Assembly (NCBI GenBank): GCA_900617105.1
Contig: UYFQ01000392.1
Location: 1 to 43,210, forward strand
Source of the DNA: Hydrurus foetidus
Lineage: Eukaryota
DNA length: 43,210 bases
Direction: 5' to 3'
A program made the translations under genes and the position numbers. The notes beneath the pieces are model-generated. The model saw only the letters and a program-made list of their open reading frames with translations, had not been told where the DNA came from and searched no databases. Numbering within the stretch: position 1 is the stretch's first letter; each line of letters starts with the position of its first letter. Shown here piece after piece: positions 7,703 through 38,072 of this stretch.

Positions 7703-8231
7703 GTATTCCACTCTGACATTTTTCTTCTACCTACACTTTGCCAAAACCTTTCTACTACTTCGGCCAAAATCAACCCTATGTATTATATGAATCTGTTTTT
7801 ATGAATCTGCAATTCCAACGAATTCCTGCTGCCCTACAACATCAACTTCCAAGACCCGAACACTCAAGATACTTACGCTAGAGCCTACACCACACATGGT
7901 CGAGATACATTAGCTGAAGACCCGTCATGACGAAGACTCCAGCACCAACATTCCTACAATAAACTATTACTAACCGCAAACTTTGCCAAACGCCAACTTC
8001 CTTCTATAACCGACAATTCCAACAGCCAACTATTTCTAGCACCTGTAAATTCCTACCGCAAACTTCTACCAGAGATCGATTTTCAAGACACTGACGTAAC
8101 ATTCCGGAGCCATTGATGAAACTTTATTTATGATTAATATTCAATGAAAATGTATGAATTGGTTTAACGCTTTTGAAATAATAATTGAATAAACCTGTTT
8201 GAATTGAATACGATAACACATCATAGGGGTG

Positions 8232-8575
8232 TGTAGTAATATCAGTGTTATGTAGACTACATATTCCGTATGCGAATTGTGATGCTATTATCTGTATTTC
8301 ATATTTGAACCACACGTACGGTGTTGCACCAGAGCAGTACCGTACTACATACGATTGAACTAGATTAGCTACCTACTCTTTGAAACAACTACCAACCGAA
8401 CTCGATAACTACTGCGTTGCAGCAGTGCTAATTAACCCAATCTCGTAGCCGATACCAACTCTTCTCTTGCAAACGAATTGCGACGAGTAAAGAGCCCTCG
8501 GAGAGAGCAGTGGGGAGCTTGTGATCAGCCGTACTGGCACATACGTATGCCCTTGTGAGACCACTAATCACAACA
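8232..8575 (+). repeat. Copia B 3' LTR, copy 1 (344 bp)
   Basis: TGTAG...CAACA, preceded by the short PPT AGGGGTG; matches 17843-18186 and 23810-24153. Confidence 0.95.
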
Positions 8576-8655
8576 GGGGACCAGGAAGTTCAGTTTTCAA
8601 TGTTGGACTATGGACCCTCTCTCCATCACCAACATCCAACATACAACATCTCAAC

Positions 8656-8774
8656 GAGCCCGTTCGATGAAAAATATTCCGCTAGAAATTAGATCCGGTT
8701 TCAGTGATTTGGGGTGAAATGGCTAGCTTCAGAAAATCTACTTTTCGGCCATTTCTGAAAAAATCTAGCGGATT
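8656..8774. mobile_element. Left half of the MITE-like element (duplicated copy)
   Basis: Same sequence as 24234-24352, starting with the TIR GAGCCCGTTCGAT. Confidence 0.55.
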
Positions 8775-9164
8775 TCTTGGAATAAAACTGTCTTGTGGAT
8801 CCTGGATCCAGTCAGAGCACCTGGTTGATAGCAGTGATTCGTTTAGAACACACTTTGCTTTCAGCTAGTCGACCAAAGTCGCTCCAACAGCTCACTCAAG
8901 TGTAGGTATAATGGCACACAGCCATATAGTCTCTTTTAATTAGAAGTGCTCATCATGTCAAAACAAAGCAGTTCATGGCTAGCTATACTAGCTACAGTTG
9001 ACTGTTCACAGTCATCATCAGTTGCAACTTCAGTACAGTTCGAGTGATGGTCTTGGGTCTGAAAACGCTACCCTCGCTCCTCCGCTTGGGCTTAGATGAT
9101 ATTACCCCAAGGGATTTCCCCCAAGGGGATCGTCCCCATAGGGATAGCTATGCTATATCCAACA
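8775..9164 (-). repeat. Copia C 3' LTR, copy 1 (390 bp)
   Basis: Matches 24353-24744 and 37272-37663; on the minus strand it reads TGTTGG...CCAAGA, preceded by the PPT AGGGGTG. Confidence 0.95.
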
Positions 9165-9326
9165 CACCCCTAATGTCATAAGCATTCAGGCGGCATATTC
9201 GTATTTTTCATGGGAATGAAACATAAATCGTATTTGTATCTGCTGTAAGCTATAGTGATCATACAAGTATTGTTGCTAATAAAATTTTAAAAAATAGCTC
9301 AACTGTAAGTCAATAGTGTATACTAC

Positions 9327-12300
9327 TTAATTTCCCATAATTTTCTTCACCATCTTGGAAAAAACCGTTCCTTGTAGTGGCTTGGTGTAGTAATCGGATG
9401 TCATATCCTCGGTGGGCACGTAGACAATGTTTACGGCACCGATACGGATGTAGTCTGAGATCCAGAATTTCCGTACCTCAATAAACCGGGTGGTCTCTGC
9501 GGTAGACCGACCTTTTTTCAGCAACGCAATGCATGATTGATTGTCTTGTTCCAGCCTCACTGGGTGTTTCCCATGTCCTTGGTACGCAATAAACCCAGCA
9601 AGCCATAGTGGAATGTTCATGCCGTCGGAAACTGCAATGATCTCGGACTCCGTACTTGACTTGGAATTGAGCCTCTGGACCTTGGAACTCGTAATAAAAT
9701 ATCCCACCCCAATGTGACACACATTCCTGAGGTTGATTTCATCATATCTCGGTTAGCAAATGCAGCATCAATTGATACTGTAACTGTCAGTGGCAAAGTG
9801 CAACCGAGTCGTAATGGCTTGTCTCTAGTAGCCCTCAGATAGCATATGAGCCTATCAAGTTTCTTGTCGTCTTCTGTTGTTGGTGCCTTTACACGTTTGC
9901 AAAGTTCACCTAACACTAATACGATGTCCGGACGCGTTCGGTTCCCCAGGTATAGCGCTGTAGCGACGTCGGTATGGAAGGTTTTAGCGTCTTTCTCATT
10001 CAGGAATTTGCAGTCCAAGGTCCGCTCAAATAGGTGTGGGGCACCCGGTGACGATGGATTCCCAATGAGGTTCATACCTCGTTCGGCATGGCTTTTTTCC
10101 CTTGATGAGATCAGATCTTGAATCATTCCGATCTGTGTGACCTTTACAAATCCTTTCTCAGTGAAATCCCACGTGCAACCTAGGTACGGTACGACACGCT
10201 CTTGAGTGGTACGGAATTGTCCGTACGTTTTCAGCAAAGTTTGCTCAAAATCCAAAACTGCTTTCTTGTCCACACACGTCATCATTAAGTCGTCTACGTA
10301 GACTAGGATAGTAAATTGGTTCCCTTTGACGTCCTTATTAAAGACGCAAATATCGCGCGGGTTGGCCGTAAACCCATTACGGCCAAGTGTTCCGGCTATT
10401 TCGTTATACCATAGTTTGGCGGACTTGATACATCCGTAAAGTGCTTTGTCCAGTCTCACCACTAACCCTCCATTGTGTCTTCGGTAGCACTTAAATGATT
10501 TGTCTTGTTTGATGATTGCGTCGGCCACATTCTTATCAATGAACATATGGAGGATTTTATCCGGTTTTTCCTTAGGCATATCGGCGTTGAGGTACGCGGA
10601 CCCAACGTCCCCGACCATAATGAAACGGTTTTCCGCAGCAGCAATCTGTGCAACTGTAAAGATGGAAGCTATAGTCGCTGTAGGTGACTCAACTTCATCT
10701 GCAGCGTAGTCTTCTCTAACTTGAGCACGCCCATCCACACAGAAACGTGCCTTGACCTTGTCGATCTGGCGATCACCATTCGAATTCAGTGTTGGGAGGT
10801 ATTTCTCCACAACATTCATGTTAGAACGCAGTATCTTCTGCTTCTGAGTAGGTGATAGCTGTTCCATGTGCACACCCGAAAATGTCCCCTTGGCAAGTAG
10901 TGATTTGACCTCTGACTCGATGGCTGTGGTAGCCTTGAACTGGGTACCCAGTTTCAGTGCCTGGGTAACTGTCATTAATGACCACTCACCCCTAATTCCT
11001 TCTTTCCACGTTGAAATAGGTAGTTTTTGAGCTACTAAGTTGAGTCTGTCTGGTGGCTTTCGAATTCTCGTCGACTTCTCACGCATTTCAATGGGTGCAC
11101 TGGGCACGTACGTACGCACGGAGGTAGGTAGTGCCTCTGGTTGCTCCTCCGATACCGCTTCAAAATTAGTTTCTGGCCCGGATACTTCGTCAGTAGTGGA
11201 AATACTATTATTTTCATCGACAGCTGATTCCATTTCACCCCGAATCTCCAATTGGTCTTGTGTAATTTGAGGTTCTATCACGGTATCAGGCGTGTCGGTT
11301 TCATCCCGGAACACCGGTTGTATGGGAGGTGGGTGTCGGAATTGGATCGTGGGTTCTGATTCTGAGGGTGTATCCATTGTTACCACATCATCATCGATAT
11401 CTCCAGTGATGTCTCTATCATGGAAAGTGAATATCGGTTCTTGCGATATGTGAATTTTATTCTTCGATGCCCACCCATTTATAGTGGTGGTGACGAGTGC
11501 AGGTATCGGTAGTACCACGTAGTGGTTGGCCGATATGATGCTCCTTGTATCGATGCGCATGAAGGAATGAGTGCCTGTGCCATTCATCTTTGGTTCCAGG
11601 TATAGGCATCCGATGGTTCGTGGATCCATGTTGTTGCTAAGCACCCTTGCGGTGACTTGGCAGTATGAGCCGAAAGGCGGTCCAATATCTTTTTTCGTGT
11701 CGGCCAAAAAATGCTTCGAAGGGGGAGATCCTATCTGTTCTCGTTGATGAGGGAAACAGTAGAAGCTTCCTTCCTGAGCTTATGACGAGGTGAGGCATCA
11801 GTATATCTGGTAGGAGGTACGGTAGACTGAAGATGGTACAACGGATGGTCTCCTTCAGGTGCCTGATCATTCGCTCAATAATGTGATCATGTTGCCCTGG
11901 ACCAACTGTAATGACCTCGACGCCCATGGCGTTCATGTCGTTGACAAGTGCCGCAATGCCTCTTTCATTATCGCTGGTAAATTTCACGATGGAAATGCGT
12001 CGGGACCCGATAGTTCCGAACATACGCTTGATGCTCTGTCGGAGCACCGGTGTTGTGAGATTCTCAATGCAGGCCACCAAAACAATGCCCAGTGAGTGAG
12101 TAATTGAAACTAGAAATGGGTGTCGATTTATGAACATGACATCACAATGCATGTGTTGATCGTCAATGTTGCGGGCCGTTGTAGATAGTTGTGGTGGTGG
12201 CATAGGCCTCAGCCTAATGGTGCGTCCTTTGAGCGAAGCAGTGCTTGCTCCCCAAATTGCTGTGGCACGTGCGATGTCTTCAGGTAAGATGTCGCAGTTG

Positions 12301-14153
12301 AGAAATGTCCCAGCCCTCAAAGCAGAAATGAATTTCTGATCGGGTGGGAATCCTAAACTTGCTTGCAAACGTCGTGCATCGTCGCTTCTTTGAACTTCGC
12401 GTTTTGTGAAATTGGCTTCGTTTCCTGCCGTTGTTTCTAGCTTAGTAGAGTAAAATAAGTTGCTAGATGGTGTTTTCACCACTGCGGGATGTGCATATCC
12501 ATTTCTGCGCTCTGCGGCGTCAGAGTATCGCGGCTCTGGAGGCGTTGCCAAATCGCTGACATACAGCCCTCCACGGTGTTAAAATTTGTATGTATTCTGA
12601 TCAGTGTGAAGCAGAAATGCATCTTGATCTATTGTAGAACCCTGGCGAAACTCCCAGTTGTGTCCTTGCAACAGGCAATCCGATGCCGAGATGATGGAAA
12701 GTCCAGCTCGCGGATCAAAATGAACAATACCAATGTCTCGAAGAAGTCCTGCTTTAGTTACAGTAAGGGAACCATGCAAGCCTTTGAATACAGTTGGAGT
12801 GCATGTTGCAATGTCAGTCAGAACATCTGCACATGTAATGATGGTTCCAGTAGCTCCTGTGTCGAAGATGGCCTCCGAGGTACTTTGTTGGTTGATGTGT
12901 TGGTTTACGGAAAAATCAGTCCGAGGACCGAGGGTTGCGACTTCCACCGGTGGGGTGGTGGTGAGGCACACACTACAGTGCCTGTCGCCATACTGATTCT
13001 CGTTAACCTCTTGGTCCCACATTTGGCCAAAAGCTGTATACCGATTGTCGTCGTCGTTGGTGTCATCTTCGTCGGTTTGTCCAATGACCGAGTATGAAGT
13101 TTTTGGTGCTGAATCGGCCTCATCCGCAGCCTTCTTTCTGCACTCACTAGCACGGTGACCGACTTTCTTGCAATATTAGCAGGTTCCACTGAACTTGCCT
13201 TCCTTTGCTTCCTTAGCAAATTTCACTTTCGGCTCCTTAATCTTGTCAGCATCGATCTTTTTGGCCTTGTCTTTGGCAGGTGATTTTTCTCCCTTTGGGG
13301 GACCACCCTGTTTGCCGGGATTCTTCGCCGCCAGTGCCGTGTGGGGAGTCGCTATCGCTGATTGCAATGCGCTACCCTTCGCCCCTCGATGGAATCGGGT
13401 TGCTCCATTGATGGCCTCCACCAAAGTCTTCGGATAGATGTCGATAGCGGTGCACTCGAGGGAGTTGCTGAGGTAGTTTTTGTAGTCGTGGTAGACCTGC
13501 ACGGTGCTACTTAGACCGTCAATTAACCTCATGGCTTGTTGTTTTGCATCTGGAATTTGTGCTGTTGGTACTCCTGTCGCAGCAAGTCGGTCGAAAAGCT
13601 TGACTGCGCGCCGTCCGTACGTTACGATCTCTTCGCCCGTACTCATAGTGAGTGTATACCAGTCCCGTAGGGCCTGGGACCGCTCCAATTCCTGATTTCC
13701 GTCACATCTGGATGTGACTACTGACTTGATTACTGCAAGCAGTTCGAGTGGATCATCGAATTTGACAGCGGCGAATTTGGCATTCACTATCAAAATCGCG
13801 TTTAGCGATGGTGAACACATCGATCGGATCAGTCGATATGCCGATCGTCGGTCCTCCATTTGCTTCTTTTTCATCTTTGTCACGACTGCTCTCTCACTAT
13901 TCAAGTCTGCCATCATTAGCTTTGCTCGAAATCCCTTTGGGTCAGTAGTGTCGTCCAGAGCCTCGAGTTTTGCATAGTTGGGTTCTGCGAATTCGTAAAC
14001 CTCATACGCAGGTTTTATCGCCAACATCATGGGGTCAGGACAGATTGACTCGAGGTCTTGAAAGTTGACTCGCATGTACTCTTTCAGAATCTACATGTTG
14101 TCGTCCCATTCTTTCCAGACATTGTGGGCTATCTCAGGAAGATTCTCTGGCTT
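9327..14153 (-). pseudogene. gag-pol: Copia C copy 1 gag-pol, disrupted
   Basis: ORFs 13176-14075, 12579-13022, 11637-12551, 9617-11707 and 9327-9722; IFDTGA (PR), CDVMF/SDNE/IIERM (INT DDE), VYVDD (RT), SSTESE (RH). Two premature TAA and two frameshifts relative to copy 2. Confidence 0.92.
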
Positions 14154-14369
14154 TGTGACCCGCACAGCTGTACAGCTGTACGGGTACCGGCGTACGTTCG
14201 GTTCAGATCGAGGACGATCCGAGCCATCCGATTCATGACTTGCCTATCTCTGTGTTTATCTGTAAGCTAACCACATCTTTAGCCAATAGCACCAGCACAA
14301 CAGCTGCCTTCCTCTTGCCCTCGCGTCCTGTCCCATCAGACCCACCGCAGAGCACATAGTTAGGCCACA
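14154..14369 (+). repeat. Gypsy D 5' LTR, copy 1 (216 bp)
   Basis: TGTGA...CCACA; matches 29726-29941 and 36939-37154; preceded by the TSD GCTT. Confidence 0.93.
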
Positions 14370-14918
14370 ATACTAGTTTTTGGACCAACTTGGTGCTCTT
14401 TTTAGAGACCAGTTCCAAAACGCGACCCAAAAACATCGCCACGACCCGTAAAACGGCGTGCAAACAAGCTAGTAACTTGGAAACAAGTGAAAACAACGTC
14501 GAAAGACACTACAAAGGCTACGTCTAATCGACAGCCTCTGAAACGCTTTAGTTAAAAAGCTCGAGTCGTCGATATTTTCGCGACAAAATCGTGACGGCTT
14601 CAAAACTCGAAGCCTAACGAAGCAAGTGGCTCTGAATCGAGCAAAAGCAAGTCCCATCGTTATAGAAACGAAAGCTGGCCCAAACGCCCGCAGTTTAGTT
14701 CCTTGAGAGGTTCAAACCGCCAGGCAACTTTTCGAGCGATATCCGACGAAATCGCGCGAAAGTAAACCAAGAAATACTCCCCAGTTGCTAGGATCCTCTG
14801 ATCCCACGCAATCATAGCTGCGGGACCACATCCTCAGCTCCATAGAGCGCCGCGTCCGAGTTCCGTCGCTGTCCAAGACCCCAAGATCCAGACGTTTCAA
14901 GCTCAAGACAAAAGTCCG

Positions 14919-17147
14919 ATGACAAGGGCCCAAATAAAGAAGAAAGCGGCTGCTAACGCAGCCGCCTCTGCTTCTTCAGCTCCAAGCGCTTCGCGCAGTG
15001 CTCCTCTCACTGAGAAGGAAAAGCACAAAGCGGAGCAGGCCCTTGTAAAGCAAAACATCGAGAAATCGATACAGGCTCTGGCCAAAGAAGCAATACATGT
15101 TTCGGCTACCCCAACTCGTCTTGAGGACGAACAAATTTTCTTCCAAAGCGTCATAGCAGCAACAAAAGAAATGCAAGCAGCTCACCAACTAGAGCTAGCA
15201 CAAATAGCTGCTGCACAAGCTGCCGCTGACGCTTTAGAACCCTCAAACGACGAGCTCCTCGGGTTGGCACCCGAGGAAGCCGAGGAAGCCGAGGGCAAGA
15301 CAGACTCTCCTCTCGATACCCGCGGGTACTTAAAAAGAGGGGGAGACAACTCGATACTCCCTCCGCGATTGAACCATCAGTCGACGGTAAAATCAAAACA
15401 AAACAGGCATCCGACACCGGCAAGGCTGACGCCGACGCCGAGTCAGAGCCGGAGGCTGACGCCGACGGTGATGACAATGCCAACAACAACGACGACGACA
15501 AACCCCCCGACGAGTCCGACGACGACAACGACAGTAACGTCGACGACGTTAACGACACGGGAGGCGATGGCGGCAACCCCGACAGCTCCTCCGACGAGTC
15601 CGACGCAAGTAGTGGCGACGGGGACGACGGAGAGGGTAACGTGGAAGATGACGGGGACGACAACAGCGACGACGATGAGGCGAAAGCTGAAGTCGAAGTC
15701 GAAGACGACGAGGAGGTCGAACCCGGAAAGTCTAAGCCCAAGGTCAAGAAGTCCCTTAAGATAAAACCCCTCGCCAAGAAAAAGTCCCCAAAGGCGGGTC
15801 CCAAACCCGCCCCAAAGGACAAAAAGGTGAAAACCAAAACCGATGCCAAATCCGGTAAAACACACCGCGCGCAAAAGGCGGAAAACTCGGAAGAGGATTC
15901 CCCTCCGCAACGCAAAGCGGGTTTGCAAACCTCCATCATCAACATGAAGGAGGCGTACTACCTCACTCGAGAAAAACTCCTCGATGACGCTGATAAAGCA
16001 GCAAGAGCGTTTTACGAACAAGCATACCGCCCTGGTATGTTAACCAGTTGGGAGATGCTAATCGAAATGGATGCCATCCAAACGATCCGCGACCAGTTGC
16101 TTTGATGCAAAAGCGAGACAAGTTACAACACCAAGACTTGTCTCGCCTGGCCAACGGTCGAAGGCAAAACGTTAACGCTAAAGAACATTGCAAATGATCT
16201 TAAAAAGATCTTTTACAAAAACAAGCGTACATCTTCCCATTACGACTTCGAAATGAAGTTAAAAAATTGCAAATTTCGCATCAGCTGGAAAGATCCTTCC
16301 GTTGAAGACAGAGCTCTCTCTGAGTTCCGTGACATCCTACTCGGATTCTGGACGTCATACGACAATATCGATGCCGACATGCAAAATGATATCTGTAAGG
16401 CCTTCTACAAGAAGCTGCCAAAGAACAACAAGTTCACAGACAATTTCATGGCAAAGACAAAACGTAAGACGAAAAAGACCGGGAAAGATACCATCTTCAA
16501 AATGCTCACGCGTCTTGTCGTCATGCTGGGCGAAGCACGCCAGATGATCAAAGACGCGGAGGACATGGGAGGTCTCGACTTCGTCTTCGAGTCAAAGCTC
16601 ACACCAACTGACCAAGACGACGCTGAGGTCGCACCTCACCGTGACAGCCACTCGGCTAACGCCTACAAGGCAATCCCAAAACGTCAGGTGGACCCTGAGT
16701 CGTCCGGCCTCAGCCGGGCGACCAACTTCTGTCACACCTGTGGCAAAAAGGGACACAACCGTTATGAATGCCAAAACCACATGAACCCTCACTGCAACCG
16801 TAGTCATCGCACTTGGTCGCAGTCTGAGGAGGCAAAGGACTTCAAACGGATTGGTCACGAAAACTTCGTACCCAATGTGTACATCAACGGGGAACTTACC
16901 CGGGACACCAACAATCCCGGGGCAGCCACCTACGTGTATCCATCTGACGACGTTGAGAACAACTTCTCTCCGCCAGGGAGAGCCCAAGACGACCGTCCGA
17001 CAAAGAAACAAAAGCTGGCCACCAACAACAACAACAAGTACAACAAGTACAAGAGCAATCCCACTCAACCGGATAGGGACAACGATCGTTCCAACACGAA
17101 CAAGTTGAGCTCCAACTACAAGGGAAAAAGTAAGTCAAAACTTGCTA
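14919..17147 (+). pseudogene. gag: Gypsy D copy 1 gag, disrupted
   Basis: ORFs 14919-15764, 15641-16105 and 16253-17152; CCHC knuckle CHTCGKKGHNRYEC; CGA>TGA at 16103-16105 versus copy 2. Confidence 0.85.
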
Positions 17148-17842
17148 CGTGAGATATTGAAGTCGCCGAGAAGGGAATTGGAAAGTTGGATTTCCGTCAT
17201 CCCCACTCAAAGCAAAAAAAACATATGGGAGGAGACGGTAGTCAAAGTTAAGTTCTTGGTCCCCCACGGTGTTTTGGGACGCCCCCTTCACCTCGACGAA
17301 ACGGTTGCAGTGCGTCTCACTACACAATTACAGAACACAATCAATTTTCCACTTACGGAGCTTTTGAGCCCTATTTCTGAATCCGGAAGACAAGATTTAC
17401 CTCAGTCGTGCATTGGAAGCAGCATTCAAAATCAGCAGCATTTTTTCCCCGCTGCCCCGGAATTTCAATTTTTTCATGATCGATATTTTGACCTTCCAGA
17501 TACTGCTGTTGCTGGGGATTTTGATTCATATGATGTTATGTAGGTTATGAGGTGCTATTTCATCAAAAAGCCCCACCAGAGCGTCGCAGGCTGATGCTGA
17601 AATATGCATTTGGAAGCGCTTGAAACGGCCAATTTTTGCGAACCTGGATTCACTGAAGACACCAGACTCTTCTTGATATTGGCCAAGTAAACCTTGCCAA
17701 GAACAATGGCTGATTCAGATTTGCTTTTTATTGACTTCTATTGTGCTTGCGCTGCAGTAGTATCGAGCGAATTTTAGACTTTTGACGTTTTCAGTGACAA
17801 GATGATTTCCGTAAAACATTAATGTCAGAACACCGTAGGGGA
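17148..17842. other. Unclassified single-copy sequence: the pre-insertion flank of copia B copy 2
   Basis: No match elsewhere in the window; ends in the TSD GGGGA (17838-17842) and continues at 24159 after B. Confidence 0.6.
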
Positions 17843-18186
17843 TCTAGTAATATCAGTATTATGTAGACTAGATATTCCGTATGCGAATTGTGATGCTATT
17901 ATCTGTATTTCATATTTGAACCACACGTACGGTGTTGCACCAGAGCAGTACCGTACTACATACGATTGAACTAGATTAGCTACCTACTCTTTGAAACAAC
18001 TACCAACCGAACTCGATAACTACTGCGTTGCAGCAGTGCTAATTAACCCAATCTCGTAGCCGATACCAACTCTTCTCTTGCAAACGAATTGCGACGAGTA
18101 AAGAGCCCTCGGAGAGAGCAGTGGGGAGCTTGTGATCAGCCGTACTGGCACATATGTATGCCCTTGTGAGACCACTAATCACAACA
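17843..18186 (+). repeat. Copia B 5' LTR (344 bp; starts TC instead of TG)
   Basis: Matches 23810-24153; boundaries fixed by the TSD and LTR-LTR alignment. Confidence 0.95.
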
Positions 18187-18197
18187 TAATTAGCACT
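18187..18197 (+). promoter_or_regulatory. Copia B non-tRNA primer-binding site TAATTAGCACT, complementary to LTR 18035-18045 (putative self-primer)
   Basis: Abuts the LTR end; exact reverse complement of AGTGCTAATTA at 18035-18045. Confidence 0.8.
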
Positions 18198-18225
18198 TCA
18201 TAGATTGCAACAAGAAGCTGCAACT

Positions 18226-19461
18226 ATGAAAGGGCGTGGAAACCCTCCACCACAAGGACGTGGTAAAGGAGGAGGATGTTTTGGTAATCGTGGCAGAGGA
18301 GCTGGCGCTAACAACCATCTTAGGGGAAACATTCCGACTATCGGAACTTACTTAGATTTACAACCGGGAAAGGACATTGTCCCTGGTACTGTAACTAAGT
18401 TTATGGGAAAAATGAAAGAGCACGCGATGACAACTTTGAAGTCCAAAGTTAGCCTTATATTCGGTGTAGACGGCACACTTGGAGACTACCCAGTGTTAGC
18501 CATACCACTACCACCTGGGGAAGGAGCAACTCAGGATGAGACGGACATCTGGAAGTTAGAGCGAGTTGAATATATCAAAGCTCGAACAAAATTGGAGGAG
18601 GACAAGCAGAACCTATACGGTGCAATGATCGGGCAGATGTCTGAGAATTCCAAGATCAGAGTGAAGGAAGTTACCGTAGGAGTTCAAGCCGATTCCGAGC
18701 CGGACCCTCGGAAACTAATGCAAGCCATCCTTGCAACTCATGTCGGAGATTCGACTCTTGGAGCAGAGCATCAAATGCACAACATCCAACAACGATACGA
18801 CCATCTAGTGATGCTACCTCACGAGCATCTGAGTACGTACCTGACCAACACCAAGTCGGCACTCACCGCTATCCAACAAGCGTTTGAGGCGGCTGGCAGG
18901 ACGGAAATAGATGAGCTATATCCTGAGGGCAGAATGGCAGTGAGGTTTATTCTGGGACTGAATAATTACTATTCAGAATCCAAAAATTTCTATATCAACA
19001 ACCTGAAGGTGTGGCCAAACACCCTCGAGGAATCTTACAACGAGGCGTCGAAACTCAAACCGACGAAGGTTTTGAATAACTCACCAGCTGCTATGGAACG
19101 CGCCAACGCTTTCGCAATGACTGGGAGAGGCGGCAAAAGTGGCAGAGGAGGATACCCCGGAGGACATAACGGGAAGAGCGCACCTGGCGCTAAGTGGGTG
19201 AAGGACGGAGCCGATTCACCCGACAGCATGAGCAGCGAGAGAGGATCTCCTGCAGCTTCAGCAGCAGTTTATACTGCATCAGCCACTCCACCTAAGGGAT
19301 ACAAGCGGGGACCTTGTAACAACTGTGGGAAGTTTGGACACCTGGCATATGAATGCAGAGGAAACGCCGCAGACACCGTAGCACAGTACTGGAATGAGGA
19401 AGGCGCGAGGAGCCCAGGAAGAAAATCAAATACAGCACCCGGCAAAGGAAAGGGAAAGTAA
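18226..19461 (+). CDS. gag: Copia B Gag with RGG-rich ends and CCHC zinc knuckle
   Basis: First ATG at 18226, 40 nt after the LTR; CNNCGKFGHLAYEC; ends TAA 19459-19461. Confidence 0.88.
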   Translation: MKGRGNPPPQGRGKGGGCFGNRGRGAGANNHLRGNIPTIGTYLDLQPGKDIVPGTVTKFMGKMKEHAMTTLKSKVSLIFGVDGTLGDYPVLAIPLPPGEGATQDETDIWKLERVEYIKARTKLEEDKQNLYGAMIGQMSENSKIRVKEVTVGVQADSEPDPRKLMQAILATHVGDSTLGAEHQMHNIQQRYDHLVMLPHEHLSTYLTNTKSALTAIQQAFEAAGRTEIDELYPEGRMAVRFILGLNNYYSESKNFYINNLKVWPNTLEESYNEASKLKPTKVLNNSPAAMERANAFAMTGRGGKSGRGGYPGGHNGKSAPGAKWVKDGADSPDSMSSERGSPAASAAVYTASATPPKGYKRGPCNNCGKFGHLAYECRGNAADTVAQYWNEEGARSPGRKSNTAPGKGKGK

Positions 19462-22400
19462 GTCTTTTACGTGATTGTTTACATGATGACATAGATAGCG
19501 ATGTGAATAATAATGTGACTAGTGTTGTAGACAAAAATGTTAAACACGTACGCATATCTAATATTGTACAAATAAAATTTATAGATGACCAAGAATCCGT
19601 GATGGACCCCATAGCAGTAGATAGTAATGTATTTAGCATAGACATCACAGACAAACCTGATGCGTTTGGTGATGATCAATTGCTGCTTGATACATGCGCG
19701 GGCGAGTCTGTATTTAGAACTAGTACACTGTTCTATGACATTGTGCACGCCCCTACACCCATGGTAGTTAATGGAGTAAATAGTAGAGGAGAGCCAATGG
19801 TGATCACAGAGCGCGGAATGACGGACTTCGGACTAGTATACTATGACCCTAATTGAATAGCAAACATTCTATCCTTTGCAAATATGGTAAATAACTGTGA
19901 CTCGGTGAAATATATAAGTAAAGGAGATTTTTACAGTTTGCAAATTATAAAAGGAGGATGCTGTTATTACTTCAATAGGGATGTTAAAAGTAACATTTAC
20001 ATATGCGATTTGAATACAATGGTAAGTAAACCCAAACTTATGTTAGTTACGACTGTTAATGACAAGATGAAAAAGTACACAGTTAGGCATGTAAAACAGG
20101 CTGAGTTAGCTAGAGAGTATCAGAGTAAATTAGGTTACGTTAGTCCAGGTCAGTTAGTTAAGCTAATTGGACAAGGTAAACTAATTAATAGCAACATTAC
20201 AACACAAGACGTAGTTAGGTCTTTAGATATCTGGGGTCCTGACTTGGGCTCCCTAAAGGGCAAAACGCCAAGCCATCAGGCACAGGTGGAAGAAGAGCAG
20301 CCGTTGTTAGATAACATTCAAGATTTAAACCAGATAATGTACATAGACATAATGTTTGTAAACGGCAATCCATTTTTAATTGCTGTAGTAAAGCCATTAG
20401 AATATGTTATGGTGAATAAGTTAAATAATAGAGCCAACCTTACACTGTGGACTAGCCTAGAGAGTGACATTAGACATGTTACTAAGTATGGATTCAGACT
20501 AGACCTAGTTAGAGTTGATGGCGAAGGTGCGATCAATTCAGTATGGTTTGAAACCAAGCTAGCTAGTATAGGTACTGCATTAGATACGACAGGTGCAGGA
20601 GAGGCAGTCACAGTAGTTGAGCGTAAGATAAGGCAGATTAAAGAGAGAGTCAGAGCAGTTATTAACACATTACCTTTTAAGTTAACCGAAAAACTAGAAG
20701 GATGGTTAGTTAGATATGCTGTTAACCGTATAGTGTTGGTTCCGACTAGGAACACTGTTGACTATGTTAGCCCTAGGGAAAAACTATACGGTAGAAAAAT
20801 TAACGTAGATAAAGAACTGAAACATGGTTTTGGTGACTACGTTCAAGTACATTCTGATAACATTGATAACAGTAACAAAGCCAGAACTTCAGGTGCTATC
20901 GCTCTGATGAGTGCAGGCAACCTTGAGGGATCTTGGTATTACATGTTACTCAATAACGAACAGATAGTTAAACGTACAAAAGCCACATCATTACCCATGC
21001 CTGATGAAGTTATTTCTTACATTAATGGATTATCTGAAAAGAGAAACATTAACAAAAGTAATAATGCTAGTCAACCTATATTTGAACAGAATAAGCGTGT
21101 AATAGTTGATGATGGACTTGACTATGATGATGAAAATATATATAACAAAAATATGCGTAGATTCAGCCATGCAGTGACACCTAATACAGATGAAATGTAT
21201 AATGATTCATATGTCGATGAAATGAACGTACAGCATGATGCACCCGTTCCATACACAATGAACGACATAAACAATATTGATAACATACCCGATGTATCTG
21301 ACATGAATGATATGAGTGACATGAATAATCAAGATGATTATGACTACACACAGCTTAAAACTGATGACGTGAATATTGAAACAGTTGAGTATGACGATAC
21401 TTTGACTGAATATCATACACCTAATGTTGATGATGTGCACAATAAACATGAAGTACTTACACCATATCAACTATCCGATGTTACTGATGATACGTACGCT
21501 GTTGATGATGTACTTACTGATGCACTGCCTGAGATAGAACAGCCTGCTTTGAGACGTAGCGCTAGAAATCATCAACCAGGCAGATGGGTTCCTAGGAGAG
21601 GAAATTACACTATAAGATGTAGTGCTATGAATCATGTACCATCCACCAATTTTTCATATGCTTTCAACATGACCGTTAAAGATGGCATTGATAAGTTAGG
21701 CAATATTGCTGTAGATTCCATTAGAAAAGAAATGCAACAGATGTGTGAAAAAGATGTTTGGGAGGGAGTGTTGATCAGCTCTCTTAGCCAGACTCAAAGA
21801 AGTAACATCATAACTAGTAGCATGTTCTTAAAGGATAAGTATACGGCGGACGGTAATTTTGACAAGCTTAAGTCTAGATTAGTAGCAGGAGGCCACTTAC
21901 AAGACAGAGATATATATGACAATGGATCTTCACCAACTGTCAGTACTACTAGTGTGTTTATTGTTGCCTCAATTGCTGCCCATGAACGTAGATCGATTGC
22001 TACTATTGATTTTCCTGGTGCATTTTTGAATAGCGACATGCCTTTAGAGGGCACTCACACTGTGTATATGCGACTGAATAAATATTTAACTGGAGTGTTG
22101 ACATCAATTGATAAATCATATATTAAATATGTTAATGATAAAGGCACATGCATTGTTAAACTGAAAAAAGCTTTGTATGGGTGTGTAGAATCTGCTAAAT
22201 TATGGTATGATAAAATCTCACATGACTTATCATTACTAGGGTATACCGTTAACCCTTATGACATATGTGTATTTAACAGAACTGAATCAAATAATAAACA
22301 AACCACACTAATAATTCACGTTGATGACATGATGATCACATGTTTTGATGAAAAACATGTTGATTATGTTATTGACGAAATTGAAAAACTATACCCTGGT

Positions 22401-23280
22401 CTAACAAAACATCGAGGAAAAGTACTTAATTACATAGGTATGACGTTTAATTTTGGGATGGCGGGAAAGATTATTATAACCATGGAAGGATTCATCAAGG
22501 AGCTGCTAGAAGACTGTAAAGGAATTATAGGGGTGTCACCGACACCGGCTAAGACGGATTTATTTTCGGTTTCACCCGAAACTTCTAACCCATTGTTAAC
22601 CACTTCTGCGCGTGAATATTTTCACTCCATAACAGCCAAGTTGCTTTATCTCAGCAAAAGATCGAGGCCGGATATTCTAACGCCGGTAGCCTTCTTAACT
22701 AAGAGAGTAACCAAGCCCCAGACGGATGATATGAAAAAACTGGAACGTACCGTACAGTACATACGTGGTACTCGAGACTTAGGCCTCACCCTTACAATTG
22801 GCGATCCAATGACTGTCATCAGCTACATTGATGCATCATATGGGGTCCATCAAGACATGAAGAGCCACACCGAAAGCACCATCACCCTTGGCAAAGGATC
22901 CATCTATGCAAAAAGCTCCACTCAAAGACTTACCACCAAGTCGAGTACGGAGGCAGAGTTAGTGGGACTTAGCGATTCTGCGAATCAAGTACTATGGACC
23001 AGATACTTCATCATAGCTCAAGGATACACCAACAGACCAGCCATCATATTTCAAGACAATAAATCAACTATCCAACTGGGAGAAAACCAACGGGAGATCG
23101 AACAGCGAACGGACAAGACATATCGATATCCGGTACTTTTTTCTCACCGACCGGATAAAAGAAAACGAAATTAATGTGACCTATAAACCCACAAATGAGA
23201 TGTTAGCAGATATGCTGACAAAACCCCTTCAAGGCGAGCAGTTCAGAGCTCTTCGAAACTTACTACTCAACATCACCTGA
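19458..23280 (+). pseudogene. pol: Copia B copy 2 pol (PR-INT-RT-RH) in the -1 frame relative to gag
   Basis: Frame open from 19458 through ORF 19503-19856 (LLDTCAG protease), one in-frame TGA (19854-19856), then ORF 19884-23174 (YIDIMF/VDGEG/VVERK, IHVDD, YIDAS). Frameshift near 23080; natural stop 23278-23280. Confidence 0.92.
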
Positions 23281-23809
23281 GTATTCCACTCTGACATTTT
23301 TCTTCTACCTACGCTTTGCCAAAACCTTTCTACCACTTCGGCCAAAATCAACCCTATGTATTATATGAATCTGTTTTTATGAATCTGCAATTCCAACGAA
23401 CTCCTGCTGCCCTACAACATCAACCTCCAAGACCCGAACACTCAAGATACTTACACTCGAGCCTACACCACACATGGTCGAGATACATTAGCTGAAGACC
23501 CGTCATGACGAAGACTCCAGCACCAACATTCCTACAATAAACTATTACTAACCGCAAACTTTGCCAAACGCCAACTTCCTTCTATAACCGACAATTCCAA
23601 CAGCCAACTATTTCTAGCACCTGTAAATTCCTACCGCAAACTTCTACCAGAGATCGATTTTCAAGACACTGACGTAACATTCCGGAGCCATTGATGAAAC
23701 TTTATTTATGATTAATATTCAATGAAAATGTATGAATTGGTTTAACGCTTTTGAAATAATAATTGAATAAACCTGTTTGAATTGAATACGATAACACATC
23801 ATAGGGGTG

Positions 23810-24153
23810 TGTAGTAATATCAGTATTATGTAGACTAGATATTCCGTATGCGAATTGTGATGCTATTATCTGTATTTCATATTTGAACCACACGTACGGT
23901 GTTGCACCAGAGCAGTACCGTACTACATACGATTGAACTAGATTAGCTACCTACTCTTTGAAACAACTACCAACCGAACTCGATAACTACTGCGTTGCAG
24001 CAGTGCTAATTAACCCAATCTCGTAGCCGATACCAACTCTTCTCTTGCAAACGAATTGCGACGAGTAAAGAGCCCTCGGAGAGAGCAGTGGGGAGCTTGT
24101 GATCAGCCGTACTGGCACATACGTATGCCCTTGTGAGACCACTAATCACAACA
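23810..24153 (+). repeat. Copia B 3' LTR, copy 2 (344 bp)
   Basis: TGTAG...CAACA; PPT AGGGGTG at 23803-23809. Confidence 0.95.
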
Positions 24154-24233
24154 GGGGACCAGGAAGTTCAGTTTTCAATGTTGGACTATGGACCCTCTCT
24201 CCATCACCAACATCCAACATACAACATCTCAAC

Positions 24234-24352
24234 GAGCCCGTTCGATGAAAAATATTCCGCTAGAAATTAGATCCGGTTTCAGTGATTTGGGGTGAAATGG
24301 CTAGCTTCAGAAAATCTACTTTTCGGCCATTTCTGAAAAAATCTAGCGGATT
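24234..24352. mobile_element. MITE-like element, left part (continues at 37669-37730; ~181 bp reconstructed)
   Basis: 13-bp TIR GAGCCCGTTCGAT (24234-24246) is the reverse complement of ATCGAACGGGCTC (37718-37730); AAC on both outer flanks; split by copia C at the TSD GGATT. Confidence 0.6.
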
Positions 24353-24744
24353 TCTTGGAATAAAACTGTCTTGTGGATCCTAGATCCAGTCAGAGCACCT
24401 GGTTGATAGCAGCGATTCGTTTAGAACACACTTTGCTTTCAGCTAGTCGACCAAAGTTGCTCCAACAGCTCACTCAAGTGTAGGCATAATGGCACACAGC
24501 CATATAGTCTCTTTTAATTAGAAGTGCTCATCATGTCAAAACAAAGCAGTTCATGGCTAGCTATACTAGCTACAGTTGACTGTTCACAGTCATCATCAGT
24601 TGCAACTTCCAGTACAGTTCGAGTGATGGTCTTGAGTCTGAAAACGCTACCCTCGCTCCTCCGCTTGGGCTTAGATGATATTACCCCAAAGGGATTTCCC
24701 CCAAGGGGATCGTCCCCATAGGGATAGCTATGCTATATCCAACA
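24353..24744 (-). repeat. Copia C 3' LTR, copy 2 (392 bp)
   Basis: Matches 37272-37663. Confidence 0.95.
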
Positions 24745-24908
24745 CACCCCTAATGTCATAAGCATTCAGGCGGCATATTCGTATATTTTCATGGGAATGA
24801 AACATAAATCGTATTTGTATCTGCTGTAAGCTATAGTGATCACAACATGTATTGTTGCTAATAAAATTTTAAAAAATAGCTCAACTGTAAGTCAATAGTG
24901 TATACTAC

Positions 24909-27900
24909 TTAATTTCCCATAATTTTCTTCACCATCTTGGAAAAAACCGTTCCTTGTAGTGGGTTGGTGTAGTAATCGGATGTCATATCCTCAGTGGGCA
25001 CATAGATAATGTTTACGGCACCGATACGGATGTAGTCTGAGATCCAGAATTTCCGTACCTCAATAAACCGGGTGGTCTCTGCGGTAGACCGACCTTTGCT
25101 CAGCAACGCAATGCATGATTGGTTGTCTTGTTCCAGCCTCGCTGGGTGTTTCCCATGTCCTTGGTACGCAATAAACCCAGCAAGCCATAGTGGAATGTTC
25201 ATGCCGTCGGAAACTGCAATGATCTCGGACTCCGTACTTGACTTGGAATTGAGCCTCTGGACCTTGGAACTCGTAATAAAATATCCCACCCCCAATGTGA
25301 CACACATTCCTGAGGTTGACTTCATCATATCTCGGTTAGCAAATGCGGCATCAATTGATACTGTAACTGTCAGTGGTAATGTGCAACCGAGTCGTAGGTG
25401 CTTGTCTCTAGTAGCCCTCAGATAGCATATGAGCCTATCAAGTTTCTTTTCGTCTTCTGTTGTTGGTGCCTTTACACGTTTGCAAAGTTCACCTAACACT
25501 AATACGATATCCGGACGCGTTCGGTTCCCCAGGTATAGCGCTGTAGCGACGTCTGTATGGAAGGTTTTAGCGTCTTTCTCATTCAGGGATTTGCAGTCCA
25601 AGGTCCGCTCAAATAGGTGTGGGGCACCGGGTGACGATGGATTCCCAATGAGGTTCATACCTCGTTCGGCATGGCTTTTTTCCCTTGATGAGATCAGATC
25701 TTGAATCATTCCGATCTGTGTGACCTTTACAAATCCTTTCTCAGTGAAATCCCACGTGCAACCTAGGTACGGTACGACACGCTCTTGAGTGGTACGGAAT
25801 TGTCCGTACGTTTTCAGCAAAGTTTGCTCAAAATCCAAAACTGCTTTCTTGCCCACACACGTCATCATTAAGTCGTCTACGTAGACTAGGATAGTAAATT
25901 GGTTCCCTTTGACGTCCTTATTAAAGACGCAAATATCGCGCGGGTTGGCCGTAAACCCATTACGGCCAAGTGTTCCGGCTATTTCGTTATACCATAGTTT
26001 GGCGGACTTGATACATCCGTAAAGTGCTTTGTCCAGTCTCACCACTAACCCTCCATTGTGTCTTCGGTAGCACTTAAATGATTTGTCTTGTTTGATGATT
26101 GCGTCGGCCACATTCTTATCAATGAACATATGGAGGATTTTATCCGGTTTTTCCTTAGGCATATCGGCGTTGAGGTACGCGGACCCAACGTCCCCGACCA
26201 TAATGAAACGGTTTTCCGCAGCAGCAATCTGTGCAACTGTAAAGATGGAAGCTATAGTCGCTGTAGGTGACTCAACTTCATCTGCAGCGTAGTCTTCTCT
26301 AACTTGAGCACGCCCATCCACACAGAAACGTGCCTTGACCTTGTCGATCTGGCGATCACCATTCGAATTCAGTGTTGGGAGGTATTTCTCCACAACATTC
26401 ATGTTAGAACGCAGTATCTTCTGCTTCTGAGTAGGTGATAGCTGTTCCATGTGCACACCCGAAAATGTCCCCTTGGCAAGTAGTGATTTGACCTCTGACT
26501 CGATGGCTGTGGTAGCCTTGAACTGGGTACCCAGTTTCAGTGCCTGGGTAACTGTCATTAATGACCACTCACCCCTAATTCCTTCTTTCCACGTTGAAAT
26601 AGGTAGTTTTTGAGCTACTAAGTTGAGTCTGTCTGGTGGCTTTCGAATTCTCGTCGACTTCTCACGCATTTCAATGGGTGCACTGGGCACGTACGTACGC
26701 ACGGAGGTAGGTAGTGCCTCTAGTTGCTCCTCCAATACCGGTTCAAAATTAGTTTCTGGCCCGGATACTTCGTCAGTAGTGGAAATACTATTATTTTCAT
26801 CGATAGCTGATTCCATTTCACCCCGAATCTCCAATTGGTCTTGTGTAATTTGAGGTTCTATCACGGTATCAGGCGTGTCGGTTTCATCCCGGAACACCGG
26901 TTGTATGGGAGGTGGGTGTCGGAATTGGATCGTGGGTTCTGATTCTGAGGGTGTATCCATTGTTACCACATCATCATCGATATTTTCAGTGATGTCTCTA
27001 TCATGGAAAGTGAATATCGGTTCTTGCGATATGTGAATTTTATTCTTCGATGCCCACCCATTTATAGTGGTGGTGACGAGTGCAGGTATCGGTAGTACCA
27101 CGTAGTGGTTGGCCGATATGATGCTCCTTGTATCGATGCGCATGAAGGAATGAGTGCCTGTGCCATTCATCTTTGGTTCCAGGTATAGGCATCCGATGGT
27201 TCGTGGATCCATGTTGTTGCTAAGCACCCTTGCGGTGACTTGGCAGTATGAGCCGAAAGGCGGTCCAATATCTTTTTTCGTGTCGGCCTTCCTTCCAAAA
27301 AATGCTTCGAAGGGGGAGATCCTATCTGTTCTCGTTGATGAGGGAAACAGTAGAAGCTTCCTTCCTGAGCTTATGACGAGGTGAGGCATCAGTATATCTG
27401 GTAGGAGGTACAACGGATGGTCTCCTTCAGGTGCCTGATCATTCGCTCAATAATGTGATCATGTTGCCCTGGACCAACTGTAATGACCTCGACGCCCATG
27501 GCGTTCATGTCGTTGACAAGTGCCGCAATGCCTCTTTCATTATCGCTGGTAAATTTCACGATGGAAATGCGTCGGGACCCGATAGTTCCGAACATACGCT
27601 TGATGCTCTGTCGGAGCACCGGCGTTGTGAGATTCTCAATGCAGGCCACCAAAACAATGCCCAGTGAGTGAGTAATTGAAACTAGAAATGGGTGTCGATT
27701 TATGAACATGACATCACAATGCATGTGTTGATCGTCAATGTTGCGGGCCGTTGTAGATAGTTGTGGTGGTGGCATAGGCCTCAGCCTAATGGTGCGTCCT
27801 TTGAGCGAAGCAGTGCTTGCTCCCCAAATTGCTGTGGCACGTGCGATGTCTTCAGGTAAGATGTCGCAGTTGAGAAATGTCCCAGCCCTCAAAGCAGAAA

Positions 27901-29725
27901 TGAATTTCTGATCGGGTGGGAATCCTAAACTTGCTTGCAAACGTCGTGCATCGTCGCTTCTTTGAACTTCGCGTTTTGTGAAATTGGCTTCGTTTCCTGC
28001 CGTTGTTTCTAGCTTAGTAGAGTAAAATAAGTTGCTAGATGGTGTTTTCACCACTGCGGGATGTGCATATCCATTTCTGCGCTCTGCGGCGTCAGAGTAT
28101 CGCGGCTCTGGAGGCGTTGCCAAATCGCTGACATACAGCCCACCACGGTGTTGAAATTTGTATGTATTCTGATCAGTGTGAAGCAGAAATGCATCTTGAT
28201 CTATTGTAGAACCTTGGCGAAACTCCCAGTTGTGTCCTTGCAACAGGCAATCCGATGCCGAGATGATGGAAAGTCCAGCTCGCGGATCAAAATGAACAAT
28301 ACCAATGTCTCGAAGAAGTCCTGCTTTAGTTACAGTAAGGGAACCATGCAAGCCTTTGAATACAGTTGGAGTGCATGTTGCAATGTCAGTCAGAACATCT
28401 GCACATGTAATGATGGTTCCAGTAGCTCCTGTGTCGAAGATGGCCTCCGAGGTACTTTGTTGGTTGATGTGTTGGTTTGCGGAAAAATCAGTCCGAGGAC
28501 CGAGGGTTGCGACTTCCACCGGTGGGGTGGTGGTGAGGCACACACTACAGTGCCTGTCGCCATACTGATTCTCGTTAACCTCTTGGTCCCACATTTGGCC
28601 AAAAGCTGTATACCGATTGTCTTCGTCGTTGGTGTCATCTTCGTCGGTTTGTCCAATGACCGAGTATGAAGTTTTTGGTGCTGAATCGGCCTCATCCGCA
28701 GCCTTCTTTCTGCACTCACTAGCACGGTGACCGACTTTCTTGCAATAGTAGCAGGTTCCACTGAACTTGCCTTCCTTTGCTTCCTTAGCAAATTTCACTT
28801 TCGGCTCCTTAATCTTGTCAGCATCGATCTTTTTGGCCTTGTCTTTGGCAGGTGATTTTTCTCCCTTTGGGGGACCACCCTGTTTGCCGGGATTCTTCGC
28901 CGCCAGTGCCGTGTGGGGAGTCGCTATCGCTGATTGCAATGCGCTACCCTTCGCCCCTCGATGGAATCGGGTTGCTCCATTGATGGCCTCCACCAAAGTC
29001 TTCGGATAGATGTCGATAGCGGTGCACTCGAGGGAGTTGCTGAGGTAGTTTTTGTAGTCGTGGTAGACCTGCACGGTGCTACTTAGACCGTCAATTAACC
29101 TCATGGCTTGTTGTTTTGCATCTGGAATTTGTGCTGTTGGTACTCCTGTCGCAGCAAGTCGGTCGAAAAGCTTGACTGCGCGCCGTCCGTACGTTACGAT
29201 CTCTTCGCCCGTACTCATAGTGAGTGTATACCAGTCCCGTAGGGCCTGGGACCGCTCCAATTCCTGATTTCCGTCACATCTGGATGTGACTACTGACTTG
29301 ATTACTGCAAGCAGTTCGAGTGGATCATCGAATTTGACAGCGGCGAATTTGGCATTCACTATCAAAATCGCGTTTAGCGATGGTGAACACATCGATCGGA
29401 TCAGTCGATATGCCGATCGTCGGTCCTCCATTTGCTTCTTTTTCATCTTTGTCACGACTGCTCTCTCACTATTCAAGTCTGCCAACATTAGCTTTGCTCG
29501 AAATCCCTTTGGGTCAGTAGTGTCGTCCAGAGCCTCGAGTTTTGCATAGTTGGGTTCTGCGAATTCGTAAACCTCATACGCAGGTTTTATCGCCAACATC
29601 ATGGGGTCAGGACAGATTGACTCGAGGTCTTGAAAGTTGACTCGCATGTACTCTTTCAGAATCTACATGTTGTCGTCCCATTCTTTCCAGACATTGTGGG
29701 CTATCTCAGGAAGATTCTCTGGCTT
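24909..29725 (-). pseudogene. gag-pol: Copia C copy 2 gag-pol (single-ORF type); N-terminus displaced to 37159-37245 by D
   Basis: ORFs 27389-29647 (CYYCKKVGHRASEC, IFDTGA, INT) and 24909-27413 (RT VYVDD, RH). A 19-bp deletion near 27411 shifts the frame. Removing D rejoins MSQRGEK...DGVK|PENLPE... in frame, with one TAG. Confidence 0.92.
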
Positions 29726-29941
29726 TGTGACCCGCACAGCTGTACAGCTGTACGGGTACCGGCGTACGTTCGGTTCGGATCGAGGACGATCCGAGCCATC
29801 CGATTCATGACTTGCCTATCTCTGTGTTTATCTGTAAGCTAACCACATCTTTAGCCAACAGCACCAGCACAACAGCTGCCTTCCTCTTGCCCCCGCGCCC
29901 CGTTCCATCAGACCCACCGCCGAGCCCAGAGTTAGGCCATA
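29726..29941 (+). repeat. Gypsy D 5' LTR, copy 2 (216 bp)
   Basis: TGTGA...CCATA; matches 36939-37154. Confidence 0.95.
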
Positions 29942-30491
29942 ATACTAGTATTTGGACCAACTTGGTGCTCTTTTTAGAGACCAGTTCCAAAACGCGACCC
30001 AAAAACATCGCCACGACCCGTAAAACGGCGTGCAAACAAGCTAGTAACTTGGAAACAAGTGAAAACAACGTCGAAAGACACTACAAAGGCTACGTCTAAT
30101 CGACAGCCTCTGAAACGCTTTAGTTAAAAAGCTCGAGTCGTCGATATTTTCGCGACAAAATCGTGACGGCTTCAAAACTCGAAGCCTAACGAAGCAAGTA
30201 GCTCTGAATCGAGCAAAAGCAAGTCCCATCGTTATAGAAACGAAAGCTGGCCCAAACGCCCGCAGTTTAGTTCCTTGAGAGGTTCAAACCGCCAGGCAAC
30301 TTTTCGAGCGATTTCCGACGAAATCGCGCGAAAGTAAACCACCAAATAGCTCCATCAGTTGCTAGGATCCTCGATCCCACGACATCATAGCTGCGGGACC
30401 ACATCCTCAGCTCCATAGAGCGCCGCGTCCGAGTTCCGTCGCTGTCCAAGACCCCAAGATCCAGACGTTTCAAGCTCAAGACAAAAGTCCC

Positions 30492-36788: not shown

Positions 36789-36819
36789 CCGATATACAGT
36801 ATGAAACACATAGGTTTAT

Positions 36820-36835
36820 AAAAAAAAAAAAAAAA
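36820..36835 (+). repeat. A16 homopolymer in the D 3' UTR
   Basis: Seen directly. Confidence 0.8.
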
Positions 36836-36938
36836 CTCAATGTTCAACCTGAAATAGTAGTTATATGTTAGTATTTAAGCATAGATAAATTGTTCATGAA
36901 AAATTTAGTACACCTTTTTTTCGAGAGAGGGAGGCCAT

Positions 36939-37260: not shown

Positions 37261-37271
37261 ACTTCTAATTA
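37261..37271 (-). promoter_or_regulatory. Copia C non-tRNA primer-binding site TAATTAGAAGT, complementary to LTR 37434-37444 (putative self-primer)
   Basis: Plus-strand ACTTCTAATTA (37261-37271) and TAATTAGAAGT (37434-37444) form a perfect 11-bp inverted repeat; the PBS abuts the LTR. Confidence 0.8.
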
Positions 37272-37663
37272 TCTTGGAATAAAACTGTCTTGTGGATCCT
37301 AGATCCAGTCAGAGCACCTGGTTGATAGCAGCGATTCGTTTAGAACACACTTTGCTTTCAGCAAGTCAACCAAAGTTGCTCCAACAGCTCACTCAAGTGT
37401 AGGCATAATGGCTCACAGCCATATAGTCTCTTTTAATTAGAAGTGCTCATCATGTCAAAACAAAGCAGTTCATGGCTAGCTATACTAGCTACAGTTGGCT
37501 GTTCACTGTCATCATCAGTTGCAACTTCCAGTACAGTTCGAGTGATGGTCTTGAGTCTGAAAACGCTACCCTCGCTCCTCCGCTTGGGCTTAGATGATAT
37601 TACCCCAAAGGGATTTCCCCCAAAAGGATCGTCCCCATAGGGATAGCTATGCTATATCCAACA
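37272..37663 (-). repeat. Copia C 5' LTR (392 bp)
   Basis: Matches 24353-24744; followed on the plus strand by the TSD GGATT. Confidence 0.95.
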
Positions 37664-37733: not shown

Positions 37734-38062
37734 TGTTGGAGTATCGGGAAAAGACACTGTAGTAGTTGTGAGTGTGTGTGCGTGGATCCCGACGGACAGC
37801 GGCGTGTACCCTTGGGGTAGTGGCCGGGACCCCGTTGGCTGTATAGTCTTCTCGGACTTTGTCCGTTCAAGATACTGTGCATTGACTGATGTGTGATTCG
37901 ATCTTGATGATTGTAAAGGACTGTGTTGCCGTCGTGTGGAGACAGCGACACAAGTTTAATTATCAAGTGATTAAACATACAGTCTTATTTCACGAGTCTT
38001 GGGTCCAAGTCACGAGTTACGCGGAGTTGCTATATCCACCGGATTAGCCGAAAGCCCCAACA
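37734..38062 (+). repeat. Copia E 5' LTR (329 bp)
   Basis: TGTTGG...CCAACA perfect 6-bp inverted termini; first 191 bp repeated at 43020-43210. Confidence 0.9.
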
Positions 38063-38072
38063 TAATTAAACT
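38063..38072 (+). promoter_or_regulatory. Copia E non-tRNA primer-binding site TAATTAAACT, complementary to LTR 37953-37962 (putative self-primer)
   Basis: Abuts the LTR end; exact reverse complement of AGTTTAATTA. Confidence 0.75.

Follow-up and report, generated by a model that had tools for sequence, protein, structure and literature searches.

Self-priming of reverse transcription has been proven at the bench for the gypsy-type LTR retrotransposon Tf1 (PMC7175516), for which the RNA's initial 11 bases are described as annealing to the primer-binding site (PBS; PMC7175516, PMC4600332) and as being separated when RNase H cleaves between base 11 and base 12 (PMC7175516). An 11-nt primer is common to Tf1 and Tf2 of Schizosaccharomyces pombe and to Tj1, all of the Tf1/sushi group of Ty3/gypsy elements, and the predicted primers of the three copia elements described here (named B, C and E) are also 11 nt long. 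The latter differ from Tf1 in that they are copia elements (RVT_2 domain, integrase before the reverse transcriptase, RT) with a predicted start site and a predicted cleavage, and in that the primers predicted for their relatives are 13–16 nt long when counted from the predicted +1.

Among Ty1/copia elements, self-priming is predicted in PMC6317226 for TAR (Houba, Osr-1), a plant lineage filed there under Tork. The prediction for TAR was drawn, as for B, C and E, from LTR–PBS complementarity and by the same in silico rule, namely an LTR complement of at least 10 bp that starts 0–5 bp past the LTR (PMC6317226). The original prediction had named two isolated copias suggested to self-prime, of which Fourf holds in substance, being filed under TAR in PMC6317226, whereas for Blackbeard the main text of PMC2806351 mentions neither tRNA, nor Tf1, nor priming. 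The latter paper (Maumus et al. 2009) defines the CoDi copia lineages of diatoms. The literature searched, in which few subscription papers were included, yielded no report of self-priming for copias of diatoms or other protists, and in the available text of PMC3601003 hairpin priming is mentioned only for chromoviruses and a hypothetical ancestor. A self-priming copia as such has already been predicted in plant TAR, outside of which the clade of B, C and E appears to lie.

A third system to be compared is that of the fungal GalEa copias, which according to PMC5445492 possess no tRNA-type PBS and carry a palindrome immediately following the LTR. In one of its forms, CTAATTAGT, this palindrome contains the TAATTA with which the PBSs of B, C and E start (PMC5445492). 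It is found in low-GC families, which suggests that it is likely a C-to-T/G-to-A derivative; the form CTGATCAGT occurs mostly in families of higher GC (PMC5445492). The combination checked for GalEa membership (CHSeq1 palindrome plus downstream CHSeq2, QTDD and CQPEA motifs) was not found in B, C and E, whose RT motifs read HVDD/YVDD and SRPD/TRPD/TKPE in place of QTDD and CQPEA. Moreover, the GalEa authors report no LTR complement and a hairpin partner downstream (PMC5445492), which B, C and E lack. In view of the downstream partner and the missing LTR complement of GalEa, of the reverse layout in B, C and E, and of the tie of the GalEa TAATTA form to low GC, the likeness of the two sites is probably incidental.

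Retrotransposons in the window

The window, i.e. the whole 43,210-nt stretch of Hydrurus foetidus DNA analysed here, is filled with nested LTR retrotransposons, comprising a partial gypsy A, copia B, copia C, chromovirus D and copia E (Table 1); no tRNA or Rfam family was found within it. Paired LTRs with a 5-bp target duplication, a PBS position and a purine tract, as in Ty1/copia elements, are present in B and C, whose LTR pairs are nearly identical, and the 3′ LTR of E is truncated by the window end. An RVT_2 domain is present in all three copias (E 8e-19 for B). An integrase was recognized ahead of the RT by matching a family profile to a solved integrase (positions 212–647, E 2.8e-8), although Pfam rve was not detected. 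Because of RVT_2 and this integrase match upstream of the RT, B, C and E are assigned to copia. Features checked for Tf1/sushi membership (RVT_1, RT-RH-IN order, chromodomain) are carried by gypsy elements A and D of the window; B, C and E have RVT_2 and no chromodomain. These three elements appear to work like Tf1, yet are no members of the Tf1/sushi group.

The RTs of the three copias are 38% (B–C), 45% (B–E) and 34% (C–E) identical, and the reading frames of all three window copies are broken, rendering them coding-defective. In the pol of B there is an in-frame stop at 19854–19856, and the frame is lost near the end of RNase H. The two LTRs of B differ at 2 of 344 nt and are flanked by a 5-bp target duplication (GGGGA); the G-rich tract preceding the 5′ LTR was considered as a purine tract and rejected, being this very duplication. 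In C, both LTR copies end in GA rather than CA (37272–37273 and 24353–24354).

The window also holds a tandem segmental duplication of approximately 12 kb (5016–17147 and 20574–32738, 15.6 kb apart, 97.9% identical), which spans the 3′ half of B, all of the internal part of C and the start of D, with insertion junctions identical in both copies. Sequencing runs containing the window stretch come mostly from freshwater, biofilm and sediment samples, and copia B is covered over its whole length by contigs of four runs. Deep contigs of the runs examined cover the DNA around the insertion site of B (17500–17830, 24154–24352), which may therefore be a repeat itself. In one run (X2), loose contig ends closely flank the stretch 18019–18060 on either side; these may stem from a diverged family in which no more than the 40 bases surrounding the predicted start and primer are retained.

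Table 1. Features of the copia elements B, C and E and of gypsy D, in window coordinates.
Element	Feature	Position	Strand	Remark
B	Complete element	17843-24153
B	5′ LTR	17843..18186	+	344 nt, starts TC
B	Predicted self-primer	18035..18045	+	Predicted RNA nt 1-11, from A of GCA; exact PBS complement; start predicted
B	Primer-binding site	18187..18197	+	Zero spacer, without TGG
B	gag	18226..19461	+	With zinc knuckle
B	pol	19398..23174	+	Protease, integrase, RT, RNase H; from RVT_2, integrase profile, translation
B	Polypurine tract	23803..23809	+	From sequence; relatives have same G-rich tract before LTR
B	3′ LTR	23810..24153	+	Starts TG; followed by target duplication GGGGA
C	Element	37663-24353	-	Target duplication GGATT; gypsy D nested inside
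C	5′ LTR	37272..37663	-	392 nt, TG...GA
C	Predicted self-primer	37434..37444	-	11 nt from A of GCA
C	Primer-binding site	37261..37271	-
C	3′ LTR	24353..24744	-
E	5′ LTR	37734..38062	+	329 nt
E	Predicted self-primer	37952..37962	+	11 nt from A of ACA; 10 nt paired, the A itself unpaired
E	Primer-binding site	38063..38072	+
E	3′ LTR	from 43020		Runs past window end
D	Gypsy element (chromovirus)	29726-37152		Nested in C
D	5′ LTR	29726-29939

Each PBS is an exact complement of its own LTR

From the sequence, it is clear that none of B, C and E has a TGG after the 5′ LTR, and that in 3/3 of these elements an exact, element-specific complement of the LTR starts directly at the first base after it (11, 11 and 10 nt at offset 0). 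In B, the 11 nt of 18187–18197 are the reverse complement of 18035–18045, a match that does not extend further; in C, 37271–37261 pairs with 37444–37434 over 11 nt, and in E 38063–38072 pairs with 37953–37962 over 10 nt. All three complements have the length and position of the in silico rule of PMC6317226. Dinucleotide-shuffled LTRs reached the observed length in only 2 (B), 0 (C) and 0 (E) of 2000 trials. When a PBS was compared with the LTR of another window family, the match was 6–7 nt, which is the common core alone. No significant similarity was seen among the LTRs of B, C and E by blastn (best E 0.14–0.6), and the top match between the B and C LTRs is a 15-nt site around the primer partner itself. 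The original prediction is thus borne out in its exact 11-nt complement in B with zero spacer and no TGG, in the same layout for C and E, in the unrelatedness of the three LTRs, and in the co-variation of the distal PBS bases with the element's own LTR.

The calculated duplex energies are −12.3 (B), −10.1 (C) and −6.5 kcal/mol (E), the E duplex being weak. When the predicted 5′ RNA was folded with the predicted start assumed, the duplex was closed, with a mean pair probability of 0.86–0.99. For gypsy D, there is no TGG within 5 bases after the 5′ LTR, and the LTR complement is at most 3 nt long. Its PBS position (29940–29952) is occupied by a perfect 12-bp palindrome starting with TAAT, as in B, C and E; such a self-complementary site could allow pairing between two RNAs, as has been wondered for GalEa.

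Related copia families

In two protein searches, the homologues listed numbered 1721 and 705, with top rows from environmental samples, and 17 copia-bearing loci with DNA (L001–L012, L100–L104) were collected, 1 of the loci being found in the metagenome scan and 11 in the genome scan. Searching 261 + 401 further genomes yielded 2 more contigs, neither with a testable PBS. Among viral contigs, no relative was found by protein search, and none of 62 loci picked out by the purine-tract pattern gave a tblastn match. Both LTR and PBS are available in five families (L001, L003/L004, L005/L006, L007 and L009), in which L003 was pooled with L004, and L006 with L005, each pair being of the same family; L002, L008, L011 and L103 were left out of the count, with LTR or PBS missing, and the distant L102 and L104 were not scored. 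The relatives are mostly collapsed single-LTR contigs, with LTR ends called from the purine tract and TG...CA. These eukaryotic contigs (L002–L012, L100–L104) sit inside bacterial MAGs, which is most likely due to binning contamination; the end of L009 resembles large-subunit rDNA by eye.

The five testable relatives are 37–46% identical to B in the RT. Each of them (5/5) has its own exact LTR complement from the first base after the LTR, with differing letters and a length of 12 (L001), 16 (L003/L004), 14 (L005/L006), 15 (L007) and 15 nt (L009); 0 of 2000 LTR shuffles reached it in any of the five. PBS/LTR covariation, which had been proposed to be sought by mining related copia families, is therefore present in all five. 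In the 8 × 8 matrix of PBSs against LTRs, the matches are 10–16 nt on the diagonal and 2–8 nt off the diagonal. Over the 104 positions between LTR end and CA in the eight elements, there are 0 mismatches and 0 G-U pairs, with the +1 A unpaired in 4/8. In contrast, the more distant controls L010 and L012 (RT identity 26%) have a PBS starting with GGTTA, which we take to be of the half-tRNA type, and an LTR complement of at most 4 nt. The distant copia L101 (RT identity 28%) has a complement of at most 5 nt. An 11-nt match is present in L100 (24% RT identity; 4027–4037/4216–4226), the start of which is not at a CA and the LTR ends of which are unsure; this element may represent another self-complementary lineage.

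The eight elements form one clade with a support of 100/100 against two distant copias (only two outgroup rows), and are 23–28% identical in the RT to the other copias fetched. Since the homologues are environmental and the RT identity to other copias is this low, the clade is likely of an origin independent of TAR, from which it is set apart by these indications rather than by a direct tree. As to the diatom CoDi elements, the atlas clusters nearest to the integrase region of B have Bacillariophyta as commonest recorded phylum (1–4 members with records), which is a weak lean to diatom-type elements; the atlas RT clusters, unlike the integrase region, show no diatom lean.

Predicted transcription start

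In 8/8 elements, the LTR partner starts at, or one base past, the A of an initiator-like CA dinucleotide: at the A in B, C, L004 and L009, and one base after it in E, L001, L005 and L007. A rough estimate from CA frequencies gives a chance of 4e-8 for this placement in 8/8. The partner had been expected at the A of CA in B and C, as is indeed found, and the partner of E is also at a CA, with the A unpaired. A TCA is present at the partner start in 5/8, and 3/8 fit YCAYTYY, the initiator of oomycetes, whose A is regarded as the transcription start in PMC3599244. The start contexts of B, C and E (GCA, GCA and ACA) do not strictly fit YCAYTYY or YYANWYY, and none of the window copias has a TATA box at the usual distance from the predicted start. 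Counted from the A of the CA, the predicted primer is 11 nt long in B, C and E and 13–16 nt in the relatives.

Probable self-priming and its alternatives

Taken together, the complementarity with zero spacer, the lack of TGG, the family-specific covariation and the CA at the partner start constitute a real feature, and B, C and E are very likely self-primed by their own RNA in a Tf1-like manner, as judged from sequence comparison and from the analogy with Tf1. It is by this analogy that we infer the start site, the cleavage, the enzyme and the priming itself. The RNAs of B, C and E would begin with the A of the CA dinucleotide (18035, 37444 and 37952, respectively), and their first 11 bases would fold back onto the PBS. 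A cut after base 11 (after 18045 in B), likely made by the RNase H of the element as in Tf1, would free a 3′ end that RT could extend. In B, this would give a strong-stop DNA of 141 nt on an 11-nt RNA primer, i.e. 152 nt in total, if the first 11 nt are assumed to be cut off the template; the approximately 152 nt plus primer of the original prediction is corrected accordingly. In plus-strand synthesis, the primer would then serve as template for the new PBS, so that the two sites would stay matched while drifting. The 104 pairs with neither mismatch nor G-U pair would follow from such copying, and a mere structural stem would need no perfect pairing over 104 positions.

The alternative that survives best, which we still consider unlikely, is that the duplex is selected but that the 3′ OH is supplied by another route, such as pairing in trans of the two packaged RNAs via the palindromic UAAUUA, the 3′-terminal copy of R in the RNA, or a host nuclease in place of RNase H. 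TAATTA is indeed a palindrome, the 3′ LTR, and hence the 3′ R region of the RNA, contains the partner as well, and in the fungal GalEa copias the PBS is replaced by a palindromic site (PMC5445492). Moreover, the bases past the predicted cut are unconserved (ACCC, AAAG, TCAA, CCTT, TCAA, CCAA, GCTC and TTTG). However, the duplex is kept in relatives that have no common palindrome, the match stops precisely at the initiator-like CA, as would fit the 5′ end of an RNA, and a GalEa-type downstream hairpin partner is absent (within 70 nt, 4–5 of 9 positions mismatched at best).

Alternatively, all three families could be primed by a host RNA with UAAUUA at its end, either a tRNA half or another small RNA, with the LTR complement being a secondary structure or a by-product. 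Such a primer would account for the first six PBS bases common to three families whose RTs are only 34–45% identical, and for the TAAT at the PBS position of gypsy D, which has no LTR complement; half-tRNA priming is also common in copia, as described in PMC6317226. On the other hand, the distal 4–5 bases are family-specific and track the LTR of each element, so that no common RNA fits them, and the wholly different PBSs of the five relatives each match their own LTR. A primer comprising tRNA positions 30–40 (standard numbering) would in addition need CUA/UUA stop anticodons and would lack the 30–40 stem pair. We therefore regard a host-RNA primer as quite improbable. Chance inverted repeats in AT-rich LTRs can hardly be the cause. 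About a dozen other window sites do show a 10–11 nt inverted match after CA/GA within 450 nt, but a match at the first base after the LTR in 8/8 clade members (0–2 of 2000 shuffles each) and the covariation across families refute such an origin.

The TAATTA core

TAATTA is mildly enriched in the window (18 seen versus 11.8 expected), and it is its position, rather than the hexamer count, that matters. None of the five related families (0/5) has TAATTA at the PBS start, and UAAUUA is therefore not a lineage-wide primer 3′ end; a primer closing with UAAUUA (+6 to +11) marks the B, C and E families. Of the self-priming copia lineage with a conserved UAAUUA that had been put forward, the self-priming part stands by comparison (3/3 in the window, 5/5 relatives, controls without it), whereas the lineage-wide UAAUUA has to be given up.

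Monophyly of B, C and E was rejected with 12 rows (p-AU 0.035), and was not rejected (p-AU 0.156) after removing L002 and L008, the PBSs of which are unknown; the common TAATTA may thus reflect shared ancestry or host-level convergence. The LTR of gypsy D contains no TAATTA, which makes a general promoter element of the host slightly less likely. TAATTA does not fit the oomycete FPR motif MWTTTNC (PMC3599244) either. A more far-reaching proposal is that a large protist copia clade, independent of TAR and Tf1, self-primes, and that three of its families, only 34–45% alike in the RT, have converged in this host on one and the same geometry, with the palindrome UAAUUA (+6 to +11) closing an 11-nt primer. 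This combined proposal is possible, and we advance it only tentatively, as it is more doubtful than not.

Implications

Covariation of primer and PBS in a widespread copia clade of aquatic habitats would mark one more origin of self-priming, likely an independent one, and would show that a copia RT/RNase H is able to make its own primer. Self-priming would free these elements from the host tRNA supply and from tRNA-fragment silencing, and would also explain why self-primed copias are missed by PBS-based annotation. The start and cut sites are predicted to the base, which opens the way to a direct test. If the convergence on TAATTA were true, it would suggest a constraint imposed by the host on a sequence acting as both promoter and primer, candidates being a core-promoter element, a cleavage signal or a dimerisation signal.
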